The position numbers were made by a program, and so were the translations under genes. 64,000 nt of DNA, from the NCBI GenBank assembly GCA_043809585.1, contig JBDROZ010000017.1, positions 1 through 64,000 on the forward strand, in the 5' to 3' direction. This stretch comes from Candidatus Eiseniibacteriota bacterium. GTDB taxonomy: Bacteria > Orphanbacterota > Orphanbacteria > Orphanbacterales > Orphanbacteraceae. Positions 3 through 33,654 of the stretch are shown in pieces; the first letter of the stretch is position 1; the number at the start of each line of letters is the position of its first letter. A model generated the notes under the pieces. That model saw only the letters and a list, made by a program, of their open reading frames with translations. It was not told the origin of the DNA and did no database searches.

Positions 3-1160
3 CACGCCATCGATTACTACGGGGTCGAGGAGCTTCTCACGGAGGAGGAGATCCTCATCCGGAACGGAATCCGCGATTTCGTCGACAGGCGGGCGATGCC
101 CGTCATCGCGGAGCATTTCGAGAACCACACCTTTCCGACGGAGCTCGTGCCGGAGCTGGCCCGGCTCGGGGTTTTCGGCTGTTTCCTGCCGGAGGAGTAC
201 GGCTGCGCCGGCGTGAGTAAGACGGCGTACGGCGTGATCTGCCGGGAGCTGGAGCGTTGCGATTCGGGGCTTCGGAGCTTCGTGTCGGTCCAGGGCTCCC
301 TCGCGATGTACTCGATCTACACGTGCGGAACCGAGGACCAGAAGAAGAAGTGGCTGCCGCCGATGGCGGAAGGAAAGATCATCGGCTGCTTCGGCCTGAC
401 CGAGCCGGACTACGGCTCCGATCCCGGCGGGCTCGTGACCCGAGCGGAGAAGACCTCGGCAGGATACGTCCTCCGCGGCGCGAAGATGTGGATCACCAAC
501 GGAAGCGTCGCGGACGTGGCGATCGTCTGGGCGAAACTGGACGGCGTGGTCCGGGGCTTCCTCGTCGAGAAGGGGACGCCGGGCTACCGCCCCATCCCAC
601 AGCTCGGCAAGTTCTCGCTCCGCGCGTCGGACACGTCGGAACTCGTCTTCGAGGAGTGCGAGATCCCGGAGGGGAACCTGCTCCCCGAATCAAGAGGACT
701 CGCGTCCCCCCTTCGCTGTCTCTCGAGCGCCCGGTACGGGATCGCCTGGGGGGCGTTGGGGGCGGCCATGGACTGCTTCGACCGGGCCCTCCGTTACGGG
801 AAGGAACGGATCCAGTTCGGCAAGCCGATCGCATCGTTCCAGCTCGTGCAGGAGAAGCTCGTCTACATGGCGACGGAGATCACCAAGGGGCAGCTCTTGG
901 CGTGGAGGCTCGGCCGACTGCTCGACGAGGGGAAGGCGAAGCACACGCAAATCTCCATGGCCAAGAGGAACAACGTGGCGGTGGCCCTCGACATCGCCCG
1001 GCTCGCGCGGGACATCGTCGCCGCGAACGGCATCATGTCCGAATATCATGTGATCCGGCACATGCTGAACCTGGAGGGCGTGAAGACATACGAGGGGACC
1101 CACGACATTCACACCCTCGTGCTCGGCGCGGACATCACCGGCATCGAAGCCTACCGGTAG
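3..1160 (+). CDS. Acyl-CoA dehydrogenase, glutaryl-CoA dehydrogenase-like (5' end outside window)
   Basis: Motifs IGCFGLTEPDYGSD, GAKMWITNG, RIQFGKPIASFQLVQ, KTYEGTHDIH. The frame stays open upstream of the ORF-track ATG at 96 (HAIDYYGVEELLTEEE...), so the true start precedes base 1. Confidence 0.9.
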   Translation, partial: HAIDYYGVEELLTEEEILIRNGIRDFVDRRAMPVIAEHFENHTFPTELVPELARLGVFGCFLPEEYGCAGVSKTAYGVICRELERCDSGLRSFVSVQGSLAMYSIYTCGTEDQKKKWLPPMAEGKIIGCFGLTEPDYGSDPGGLVTRAEKTSAGYVLRGAKMWITNGSVADVAIVWAKLDGVVRGFLVEKGTPGYRPIPQLGKFSLRASDTSELVFEECEIPEGNLLPESRGLASPLRCLSSARYGIAWGALGAAMDCFDRALRYGKERIQFGKPIASFQLVQEKLVYMATEITKGQLLAWRLGRLLDEGKAKHTQISMAKRNNVAVALDIARLARDIVAANGIMSEYHVIRHMLNLEGVKTYEGTHDIHTLVLGADITGIEAYR

Positions 1161-1407
1161 GCCGGGGCCGCCGGCCGAAATCTACTGCGATTCAGGCTCG
1201 CGGACTGCGAGACCTCCCTTCCTTCACCGCTTCCTCGACGGGGCCCGTCGGGCGCTTGGACTTATCGCGACGGCTAGGAGCGATAAGCGTTAGCGCCCGG
1301 GGGGAGAATCTAATGAGGCCCCGCCTGCGGGAGCGGTTCGTCCAGGTCGGCCTCTCTTCACGCGATCCTGAACCTCGCGACGATTTCGCCCGGCGGTCCC
1401 GGCCTAC
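1157..1407 (+). repeat. Long imperfect palindromic (rod-shaped) intergenic element, copy A
   Basis: 1157-1182 and the reverse complement of 1382-1407 match at 24/26 positions; nested internal stems throughout; homologous to 32751-33016. Confidence 0.8.
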
Positions 1408-32058: not shown

Positions 32059-32703
32059 ATGAAAGCAGCCTGCACCGTCCTCGCTCTCACACTGTTCACC
32101 GTCGGCGCCGCCTACGCCAATCCGCTCCCGGAAGGCTACGCCGGCATGGATCAGAACGGCGACCTCGTCTGCAATCCGGAAGAGATGGGGTTCGAACTGA
32201 CGGCGGGAGACGCCGGAATGAGCTTCGGCCTGGATCCGTTCTTCGACATGATCGGGGGCGGAGTGCTCTCCTTCGGCTGTGTCTTCTGTGTTCAGGACAA
32301 GAACCTCGTCTCCGACGAGTCGTGGACCTTCGCGACTCCGGCCGGCTGGACCAACGGCGTCTTCCGGAACTCGGACGAGCCGGGGTTTCCCTACCCCGTG
32401 AGCTCCTGGATCGGGGCGGCCTACCCGAACTACCGGTGCTACGCCGTGGAGGCGACTGACTTCACGTTCTCCTCCCCCCTCGCGAGCCCGTTCCCGCTCG
32501 GCACCTTCACCTTCACGTACGCCGCCGCCGAAGAGGGCTGCGTCGGGTTCGTGATCGACGGCGCCAACACGGGCTTCCTCACGACGTCGTTCATCACCGG
32601 AACGATGGAACTCGAGGGGCAGACCTGCCCGCCCTACGAGTGCGGCGGGATTTCGTCGACCGAGAAGGAGTCGTGGGGGGGCGTGAAGGCGCTCTTCCGT
32701 TAG
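32059..32703 (+). CDS. Secreted Cys-rich hypothetical protein with SW-tail
   Basis: RBS GGAGGAG; signal peptide ending AYA; C-terminus STEKESWGGVKALFR. Confidence 0.8.
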   Translation: MKAACTVLALTLFTVGAAYANPLPEGYAGMDQNGDLVCNPEEMGFELTAGDAGMSFGLDPFFDMIGGGVLSFGCVFCVQDKNLVSDESWTFATPAGWTNGVFRNSDEPGFPYPVSSWIGAAYPNYRCYAVEATDFTFSSPLASPFPLGTFTFTYAAAEEGCVGFVIDGANTGFLTTSFITGTMELEGQTCPPYECGGISSTEKESWGGVKALFR

Positions 32704-32750
32704 CCCTGGAATCGAGTTTGATCATTCGATCGGCGGTCCGCTACCTAGGT

Positions 32751-33016
32751 GGGCCGCCGGTTCTATCTGGCTTTCTGCTGCGACTCCGGCTCGCGGGCTG
32801 CGAGGCCTCCTTTCCATCGCCGCTTCCTCAACGGGGCACTTTGGCCCCGCACCTGGCGACCGAGGCCGGGTACCCACCCGAGTGGGAGGCGAGGGTGGGG
32901 GGCCGAGGGACGTCCCGGAGGCGCGGGAGCGCCGGAGGGGGAGCGGCTTGTCCAAGTCGGCCTCTCGCCTCGCGATCCGGAGCCTCGCGACGAAACCCAG
33001 AAAGAATCGGCGACCC
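32751..33016 (+). repeat. Long imperfect palindromic (rod-shaped) intergenic element, copy B
   Basis: 32774-32837 is 55/64 identical to 1181-1244 and 32939-32993 is 47/55 identical to 1329-1383; its ends base-pair. Confidence 0.8.
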
Positions 33017-33035
33017 CGGGCCGCCGGTTCTTTTT
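33002..33035 (+). terminator. Terminator-like hairpin at the 3' edge of element B
   Basis: AAGAATCGGCGACC-CCG-GGCCGCCGGTTCTT followed by TTT. Confidence 0.5.
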
Positions 33036-33237
33036 CATCGGGGAGGGCCAAGAGTACTCCCTTCCCCGGGGCAAGAGTGACTATATTCACCGACATGGGG
33101 GGAAGTTCCCCCCCAGAATTGCATTCCCCCCCGAGTGACTTTCGAGGTTCGCGCCCCCTGCGCGAGAAGCCGCGGCGATCCGGATTGCACCGCTCCTCCC
33201 CGGGCGCCCGGTCCGGCCCGCCGCCGGAGGTAGCCCC

Positions 33238-33654
33238 ATGCCCCGGTTTCTGTTGTTGACGCTTTTTTTCGCAACTGGATTCGCGATCGTTCCGGCTGCC
33301 GATGCCGCGACCTTCGTGGTGACGACTTCGGGAGTGACTTTCGTCCCCGATTCTGTGACGGTCAGCGTCGGAGACACCGTTCAGTGGGTGTGGGGCGGCG
33401 CGCCGAACCACACGGTGACGAGCGGCACCGGCTCGGCGGACCCGGACGCGGGCGCGCTCTACGACGCGCCCCTGAACTCTCTGAATCCGACCTTCTCCTA
33501 CGTCTTCTCCGGCGCGGGGGGGATCTACCCGTACTTCTGCCGTCTCCACGAACTACTGAACATGGACGGGGTGGTGATCGTCGAGGAGCAGGTGGGTGTT
33601 CCCGCCCCTTCGGGGTTGGTTTCCTGGTCCCGGATCAAGGAAGTCTTCCGGTAG
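33238..33654 (+). CDS. Secreted cupredoxin (plastocyanin/azurin family) with SW-tail
   Basis: Signal peptide; VSVGDTVQW, NHTVT, type-1 copper ligands YFCRLHELLNM; C-terminus SWSRIKEVFR. Confidence 0.9.
   Translation: MPRFLLLTLFFATGFAIVPAADAATFVVTTSGVTFVPDSVTVSVGDTVQWVWGGAPNHTVTSGTGSADPDAGALYDAPLNSLNPTFSYVFSGAGGIYPYFCRLHELLNMDGVVIVEEQVGVPAPSGLVSWSRIKEVFR

Follow-up and report, generated by a model that had tools for sequence, protein, structure and literature searches.

Here we examine a 64,000-nt stretch of the Candidatus Eiseniibacteriota contig JBDROZ010000017.1 (the whole stretch analysed, called the window below), which comes from a genome of 4.24 Mb in 123 contigs, designated G000. The window carries two related non-coding elements, copies A and B, which a first-pass annotation had placed at 1157-1407 and 32751-33016 and had offered as a candidate non-coding RNA (ncRNA) or a non-autonomous mobile element. 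[quoted passage not shown] The features of the two loci are as follows.

96..1160, plus strand: gene upstream of A, acyl-CoA dehydrogenase family (open reading frame, ORF; Pfam Acyl-CoA_dh_N/M/1, E 9e-33 to 4e-19)
1158..1406, plus strand: copy A entire, TAG...CTA, a variant with an insert at the apex (match to covariance model R1 at C17:1156-1409, 159.7 bits, E 7e-35; rod fold)
1158..1182, plus strand: left outer arm of A, 25 nt, variable, partner of 1383-1406 (arm pairing extended outward)
1183..1244, plus strand: conserved left core half of A, with TACTGCG..., the C-rich bubble strand CCTCCCTTCCTTC, and CCTCGACGGGGC (nhmmer left block, alignment A2)
1245..1317, plus strand: apex insert module of A, 73 nt, itself a hairpin centred on CTAG (comparison with minimal copies)
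1318..1382, plus strand: conserved right core half of A, with GCCCCGCC..GGGAGCGG, the bubble strand TTCGTCCAGGTC, CTCTC.., and CCTCGCGACG (nhmmer right block, alignment A2)
1383..1406, plus strand: right outer arm of A, 24 nt (arm pairing, consensus helix 1)
32059..32703, plus strand: gene upstream of B, with 0 Pfam families (own ORF call)
32746..33016, plus strand: copy B entire (nhmmer pair C17:32776-32992, arm pairing, rod fold)
32746-32748, 32751-32775 / 32993-33016 and 32776-32992, plus strand: terminal TAG, outer arms and core of B (nhmmer, arm pairing)
32855..32938, plus strand: nested central module of B, about 84 nt (BLASTN of B 105-188; 7-locus alignment; C23 repeat query 2501-2582)
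33018..33040, plus strand: short GC hairpin and T run just 3' of B, terminator-like by consensus scan only (33018-33030 plus TTTTTCATCG)

The TAG stop of the acyl-CoA dehydrogenase gene (1158-1160) forms the opening three bases of copy A, which extends from GTAGGCC to GGCCTAC, and the gene upstream of B ends in a TAG that lies 43 nt before the terminal TAG of B. The copies have in common a left block (55 of 64 positions identical; A 25-88 against 32774-32837) and a right block, for which BLASTN gives 52 of 64 (A 166-227 against 32930-32993) in place of the 47 of 55 counted at first pass. All the motif pairs singled out there were found again, namely TTCAGG/CCTGAA in A against CTCCGG/CCGGAG in B and ACCGCTTCC/GGGAGCGGT against GCCGCTTCC/GGGAGCGGC, and the compensatory pairs stand as described. 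The helix CGGGGC, both strands of the bubble and the loop GGCGC-GGGA-GCGCC were found as well. Both copies fold as rods, far below shuffled sequences in free energy (A: -156.4 kcal/mol, z -6.9, 0 of 200 shuffles equal; B: -188.3 kcal/mol, z -5.3, 0 of 100 shuffles equal).

A dispersed family of modular repeats

What had been taken for two copies is a family of more than 100. BLASTN of A against G000 returned 46 matches and a more sensitive run with A and B together 319 rows, while iterated nhmmer searches found 138 left and 130 right blocks, which form 105 left/right pairs and leave 33 + 25 = 58 halves unpaired, mostly at contig ends; the covariance model R1 has 111 matches in the same genome, spread over dozens of contigs. 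The spacer between the blocks is only 11-20 nt in 84 of the 105 pairs, which defines a basic core of 131 nt, and since pairing of the flanks extends outward from this core by a fixed length (mode 25 nt on the left and 24 nt on the right), the full unit measures about 180 nt. Minimal copies are of this length, variants reach 250-330 nt, and all are non-coding. The core is made of short helices parted by conserved C-rich internal loops and of a conserved apex hairpin (CCTCGACGTAGC-loop-GCTACGCCTCCGG); around it lies an outer helix of 25/24 nt whose sequence is free, and the termini, TAGCCYGG...CCRGGCTA, are inverted repeats.

The centres of A and B, which the first-pass annotation regarded as unrelated, proved to be recurrent modules. 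The size class of A, with centres of 78-86 nt, accounts for 9 of the 105 pairs, and its insert is also seen in copies at contig ends; the remaining centres are of 106 nt (B), 117 nt, 125 nt, about 133 nt in 4 pairs, about 181 nt in 4 pairs, and 289 nt. The central module of B is about 80% identical to a module of about 95 nt that stands at 7 other loci, where it sits mid-way in a second, likewise abundant, family of repeats. Extra modules nested at or beside the apex or in the bubble mark A and B as variants of the element. The second family is itself found at dozens of loci in G000 (e.g. C42:42908-43077, C39:59663-59838 and C23:26600-26900) and consists of halves of about 64 and 91 nt set about 18 nt apart; the module (GGCGACCGAGCCCGGGTACCC...GATGATGCCTA) lies between its halves in the 7 loci, and the same module type occupies copy B and the right bubble of several other copies of the element.

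These figures bear on the idea that A and B are independent structured RNA genes, 6S-like or encoding another trans-acting RNA, which have been duplicated. The rod with its conserved internal loops, the UUCG- and GNRA-like apical loops and the strong covariation described below are what such genes would be expected to show, and 6S RNA likewise is a rod with a large internal bubble. However, Rfam gave 0 matches at the gathering score in the 64-kb window, and a search to E 10 around A and B returned chance-level rows only (best E 2), with no row for 6S. Unlike 6S RNA, the element moves, is present many times over and shows no trace of a separate transcription unit: it exceeds 100 copies and is polymorphic in insertion between species, its copies begin on or next to the stop codons of upstream genes, and no sigma-70-like promoter was found around B. 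We therefore consider the duplicated RNA gene highly improbable, and the suggestion of a 6S-like RNA falls with it; the stop-adjacent position points to co-transcription with the upstream gene rather than to an RNA gene of its own. The element is a previously unannotated repeat family, not a new RNA gene.

Insertion at CTAG and overlap with stop codons

Evidence of movement comes from a young, near-identical subfamily whose copies have the sequence CTAGCCTGGATTATGCA at both ends (CTAGCCYGGAYNATKCA is likewise an element end sequence). This 17-mer, allowing up to 2 mismatches, matches G000 at 113 places, which include 21 close inverted pairs (<330 nt) and about 70 single matches lying mostly within a few hundred bases of a contig end; the repeat thus breaks the G000 assembly, and causes much of its fragmentation. 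A sister genus, g5, has a young variant of its own, of which the outer 18 nt are common with the young subfamily of G000. Mosaic copies also exist, for example a young body with an old-type left apex arm, indicating that sequence is exchanged between copies.

Filled and empty states of the same site were found in two genomes of the phylum that belong to different species, G004 and G007. Insertions stand at G007:C168 and G007:C79, whereas their counterparts G004:C61 and G004:C85 carry none, and the flanks agree at 87-92% identity. At one site TCT-CTAG-[element]-CTAG-CGG stands against an empty TTT-CTCT-CGA, and at the other ACAG-CTAG-[element]-CTAG-GCTAG-AAGA against ACAT-CTAG-AAGA; in both pairs the empty site has one CTAG-type 4-mer and the filled site has CTAG on each side, which identifies the element as a true insertion bounded by CTAG. 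TA lies on both flanks of every young copy. Flanks such as C-TA...TA-G, T-TA...TA-A or TTAG...CTAA are better matched by a duplicated TA within NTAN than by a direct repeat of 4 bp, although the palindromic target allows no proof of this. Insertion takes place at CTAG or, as these flanks suggest, other TA sites, CTAG then flanking both ends. CTAG is a preferred target of IS630 elements. In structural terms the family has the hallmarks of a MITE, being composed of short, non-coding, dispersed copies with terminal inverted repeats and filled and empty insertion sites, and these features, with the copy number and the contig breaks, bear out the first-pass suggestion of a non-autonomous mobile element. 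A paralogous 'empty site' (C23 against C82/C119) was ambiguous, its 'empty' sequence resembling a decayed end, and was not used.

To place the copies among genes we used our own crude ORF caller, whose 2455 calls cover 78% of G000. An overlap of more than 10 nt with a called gene was seen in only 6 of 81 copies. The spaces between convergent genes are enriched in copies (24 of 73, where such spaces make up 417 of the 2332 intergenic ones), and those between divergent genes are depleted (8 of 73, against 429 of 2332). Among 79 copies with flanks (19 young and 60 old), a gene stop lies 18-38 nt to the left of the core in 39, and in 16 of these 39 the stop is a TAG exactly at -25, that is, the first three bases of the element, as in A. 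At the right end, a stop on the opposite strand was counted in 9 of the 79, and as a single copy has stops at both ends, a stop stands at a terminus in 47 copies and at none in 32. Many copies thus sit exactly on the stop codons of real genes: Pfam domains were found in 19 of 20 upstream ORFs tested, of many kinds (peptidases, glutamine synthetase, major facilitator superfamily transporters, PdxS, PorV) and with no common function. The termini of the family supply or adjoin the stop codons of dozens of genes.

Orientation separates the two age classes. Old copies have the stop on the left in 34 cases and on the right in 4 (of 60), whereas young copies, which are on stops in 10 of 19, are divided 5 to 5; the bias of the old copies against the lack of bias in the young points to a transcription-linked filter that acts after insertion. 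The preference for stop codons as such can be accounted for more simply. Both ends read TAG inward, and insertion into a TAG or TAA stop therefore restores a stop; CTAG sites number only 1012 in G000, and among the 948 ORFs of 150 aa or more that were called with a TAG stop, C precedes the TAG in 231. Target preference together with loss of disruptive insertions is enough to explain the position on stop codons.

Several lesser observations concern the ends of genes and of copies. By the crude ORF calls the stops of G000 comprise 1067 TAG, 1081 TGA and 283 TAA, and at 66% G+C a genome would not usually have TAG as common as TGA. In G000 there are solitary 5' stumps with their TAG intact (e.g. 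C18:50771 and C64:5621), and at G008:C405, in genome G008 only, a right-end fragment, CCTCGCGACGGACCCAGATCGAAACCGAGGGTGA, follows a complete syntenic copy; such stumps and fragments indicate that copies decay by deletion while the stop codon stays. A role as intrinsic terminator was considered and set aside, the right flanks of most copies having no T run and B alone being followed by one.

Maintenance of the complementary arms and spread of the family

Alignment A2 brings together 52 minimal copies, for which RNAalifold gives a consensus of 50 pairs. Collecting copies in this way upheld the covariation first seen between A and B alone: double changes occur in 43 of the 50 pairs, 91.1% of cells are paired against 66.1% in 500 shuffles (0 of 500 reach the observed value), this proportion falls to 32-45% when the partners are slid by 1-3 columns, and cells with double changes number 657 against 188 in shuffles. 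The outer helix (consensus helix 1) has double changes in 22 of its 23 pairs, its arms being the most variable part of the element and yet paired. The pair spectrum was taken from the 46 older copies with two conserved G-U pairs left out. There, 1961 of 2208 cells are Watson-Crick, G:T and T:G together make up 29 cells against 86 for A:C and C:A, and mismatch cells that contain C outnumber those that contain G by 174 to 61. The sense strand holds 37.6% C and 29.1% G, with CCTCC occurring 81 times and GGAGG 6 times, and the antisense strand folds better in 52 of 52 copies (mean -117 against -104 kcal/mol). The arms thus show strictly kept, DNA-type complementarity combined with a strand-specific richness in C. 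With A:C cells in excess of G:U and a better antisense fold, the pair spectrum does not back selection on a sense-strand RNA, and the G-U pairs that had been read as favouring a plus-strand RNA lose that meaning. The broader first-pass claim, that the structure is under selection, holds in part: complementarity is kept through massive double change, but G-U intermediates are nearly absent, and hairpin-templated DNA repair is an equally good cause of the covariation as selection on RNA.

Comparison between genomes shows that this happens to copies in place. In a sample of 10 genomes of the phylum, R1 matches 6 (G000 111, G003 31, G004 35, G007 68, G008 50 and G005 2), with no match in G001, G002, G006 and G009. 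For 10 genes of G003 that end in an element, the best tblastn match in G000 has a co-oriented 3' element in 4 cases and a remnant in a fifth; the proteins of the 4 cases are 46-88% identical, and between the two elements of a case, which have 54-61 pairs, 20-22 pairs show a double change, 0-2 a single one, and 0-1 are broken. A syntenic trio in G004, G007 and G008 adjoins a fully conserved tRNA gene. Between the G004 and G008 copies, 46 of 68 pairs are unchanged, 17 have double changes, 1 has a single change and 4 are unpaired, and differences fall at 8 of 46 positions in unpaired columns and 41 of 136 in paired ones. Elements of the trio are 73-88% identical, against 45-57% over alignable positions for the neighbouring non-coding DNA. 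Old copies therefore stay at the same gene ends across genera, with complementarity kept almost only by double Watson-Crick changes. Both complementarity and loops are maintained in place, which could be the work of selection, of repair templated by the opposite arm, of conversion from other copies, or of a mixture of these.

The same data allow the family to be read as purely selfish DNA with no role as RNA, its arms kept by mismatch repair in extruded hairpins, its loops by gene conversion, and its position on stops a consequence of TA/CTAG sites that are harmless. The 17 double changes against 1 single change in syntenic orthologues and the rarity of G:U cells agree with this, as do the exchange seen in mosaic copies, the scarcity of CTAG sites and the frequency of C before TAG stops, the unbiased orientation of young copies on stops and the lack of shared function among upstream genes. 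Yet the 34:4 excess of sense over antisense among old copies calls for a filter linked to transcription, the C-rich mismatches and loops of the sense strand are not predicted by a strand-symmetric DNA process, and the elements are far better conserved than the non-coding DNA that flanks them. On balance we regard a wholly selfish family as possible, if somewhat doubtful.

Beyond the phylum, R1 found homologues of low GC (0.38-0.45) in an unrelated group (3 in G016, 1 in G042 and 6 in G043). A cross-phylum scan of one genome per species with the apex motif CCTCRACGTAG-N4-9-CTACGCCTSNG yielded at least 116 stretches; among the listed matches are, by record label, Desulfobacterota (including Desulfosarcina widdelii and Desulfocarbo indianensis), Acidobacteriota, Nitrospirota, Myxococcota, Planctomycetota, Bacteroidota, Cloacimonadota, Gammaproteobacteria and others. 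R1, run on 80 of the at least 116 loci, gave 54 matches at E <=0.01, 38 of them full length. Many cross-phylum copies have the base helix CTACTGCGG...CCTCGCTACG and CTAG or TTAA termini, which lie outside the search pattern, and in 22 of the 38 full-length copies a terminus (12 left, 10 right) coincides with the end of an ORF of 80 aa or longer. Relatives of the element are thus present in metagenome-assembled genomes and isolates labelled Desulfobacterota, Acidobacteriota, Nitrospirota, Myxococcota, Bacteroidota and others. The complete genome of Desulfosarcina widdelii, with only 3 weak R1 matches, gave no help toward a partner enzyme.

Such a distribution could be taken to describe an ancient superfamily spanning many phyla, in which the sense copy on a stop codon would be a long-lived device of the 3' untranslated region (UTR): its C-rich, anti-Shine-Dalgarno-like loops (CCUCC, CCUUUCC) and its apex would act on ribosomes, termination or RNA decay, with the arms kept by hairpin-templated repair, a process that would account for double changes outnumbering single ones by 17:1. 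In a second form of the proposal the apex would be the handle of a mobilising enzyme that reads structure. We consider this proposal, in either form, rather unlikely.

Candidate mobilising enzymes and comparison with known repeats

The history that we favour, of a MITE-like family, would run as follows. The element would be moved in trans by a transposase, most likely a TA-duplicating DDE enzyme of IS630/Tc1-mariner or IS5 type; as its ends present TAG inward whichever strand is read, a stop codon hit by the element is rebuilt as TAG. The copy would then be transcribed as the 3' UTR of the upstream gene and fold there into a long hairpin, whose arms would stay complementary through selection on the hairpin, through mismatch repair templated by it, or through the two together. 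Copies in antisense would be purged, as their GGAGG-rich, Shine-Dalgarno-like loops would enter mRNAs, and extra modules would come to nest at the apex or in the bubble.

Several findings weigh against this history, the pair spectrum and the better antisense fold among them. No pair of ends 0.5-3 kb apart, as expected of an autonomous copy, was found in G000, and none at a distance is evident among the listed matches for G003-G005, G007 and G008, although the assemblies are fragmented and the absence of an autonomous insertion sequence (IS) is not proven by this. The three IS630-type (DDE_3) genes of G000 are TA-flanked but have unrelated ends (best local alignment scores 14-16). DDE_3 is present in G000, G004 and G008 and was not found in G003, G005 or G007, the last of which has 68 copies and a young subfamily. 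The best conserved part of the element across phyla is the apex and not the ends, which is unusual for a transposase that recognises terminal inverted repeats; the apex pattern selected for the apex, yet the G016 and G043 copies, found without it, agree. CTAG and TA being palindromic, the sites are compatible with a duplication of 2 bp or of 4 bp, or even with one CTAG that belongs to the element, and one filled site has an extra GCTAG. The stop-codon counts, finally, depend on the quality of our crude gene calls.

Other transposase families were also searched. The IS4/IS5-type DDE_Tnp_1 gave 4 matches, none near element ends, and DUF4096 gave no match. One TA-flanked IS630-type IS (G000:C38:335-1445) has two ORFs that overlap at a run of A8, possibly a programmed frameshift, and a minimal copy of the element lies about 330 nt downstream of it.

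An HUH enzyme ranks second as mover, after a TA-duplicating DDE enzyme acting in trans. It would make the family a giant relative of REPINs, the composite forms of repetitive extragenic palindromes (REPs), in which a folded single strand consisting of a TAG head and a long hairpin is moved by an HUH tyrosine transposase of the REP-associated (RAYT) type, with the arms needed for recognition and with no true target duplication. Each of the 6 genomes in the phylum sample that bear the element has Y1_Tnp genes, as against 0 of 3 family-f1 genomes that have no element and only a weak match in G009; however, this co-occurrence is drawn from 10 related genomes and could simply reflect phylogeny. In G000 a RAYT-like ORF of 219 aa (locus L097, C51:14169-17495, ORF 1207-1866 on the minus strand) has HUH-like and Tyr motifs and scores 40.6 bits against the model of the REP-associated tyrosine transposase, below the cut-off of 80. 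Inverted GGGGGACAC...GTGTCCCCC hairpins, a third repeat family, flank this gene in place of the element studied here (R1 near it: E 0.97), so that, attractive as the co-occurrence is, we set the gene aside as mobiliser. Its stop lies in the CTAG end of an 88-nt hairpin with CTAGCC termini like those of our element. Covariation that is Watson-Crick only suits a structure read as DNA, and the filled and empty sites are compatible with a target CTAG joined to a CTAG borne by the element. REPs, however, measure 20-40 nt and have conserved heads, whereas the outer arms here are the most variable part and the element is much longer, and young copies are always flanked by TA on both sides. Taken together, a REPIN-like origin appears improbable. 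The likeness is nonetheless of some breadth, since REP and REPIN sequences have (G/C)TAG heads followed by GC-rich palindromic, covarying arms and lie downstream of genes, and GTAG-tagged REPs are described in PMC3733652, comparable to the GTAGGCC to GGCCTAC ends of A; a RAYT-like gene is present in every one of the element-bearing genomes of the phylum.

A closer parallel is offered by the hairpin-forming MITEs of other bacteria. ERIC elements occur in size variants that arise from internal inserts, and they are retained at orthologous sites with compensated changes. Bacterial MITEs are shorter than 200 bp, with terminal inverted repeats, terminal TA and end-to-end folding (PMC2229807). ERIC (or IRU, 127 bp) is a small non-coding repeat that folds end to end into a long hairpin in transcribed intergenic DNA; it is co-transcribed with its neighbours, with an effect on mRNA that depends on orientation (PMC2229807). 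Unlike ERIC, the present element is GC-rich, about 180 nt long, stop-overlapping and found in many phyla, and it has no sequence similarity to ERIC: blastn of a young copy (word size 11) gave no match in 5,426 complete E. coli genomes, and blastn against 72,556 plasmids gave none. RUP of pneumococcus and Correia/NEMIS of Neisseria likewise have terminal inverted repeats, TA termini or targets, lengths of about 100-160 bp, at least 100 copies and RNA hairpins, and RUP is linked to IS630-Spn1 by shared terminal inverted repeats and TA targets (PMC2229807). In contrast, our searches found no IS whose ends match, the outer arms are free in sequence but paired, and the conserved part is internal. 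Anatomy and context match those of the hairpin-forming MITEs ERIC, Correia and RUP, the GTAG-tagged REPs being a looser parallel. Our literature search, with supplements outside its scope, returned general papers on MITEs and REPs and no description of this repeat family.

If the family is overlooked, gene ends, predicted terminators and 'novel ncRNA' candidates are liable to be misjudged. Its near-pure Watson-Crick covariation at syntenic loci is a warning that covariation in palindromic repeats need not mean RNA function, and makes the family a test bed for distinguishing selection on hairpins from hairpin-templated repair.

Some further details of the window surround copy B. Directly after the stop of its upstream gene lies CCCTGGAATCG (32701-32720), and TAGCCCTGGA, 45 nt before the TAG of B, could by its look be what is left of the left end of a further copy that has decayed. 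The inner part of B is bracketed by a direct repeat (ATCGGCG..GGGCCGCCGGTTCT) at 32728-32764 and 33006-33032; the right-hand copy of this repeat passes into a T run and scores as terminator-like, and the repeat may reflect duplication of a terminator or an insertion event of an unusual kind. The gene downstream of A encodes a multihaem cytochrome c (1814-2419; Cytochrome_C554/C7 by Pfam) and that downstream of B a small blue-copper protein (33238-33654), both of them ordinary neighbours with no link to the element.

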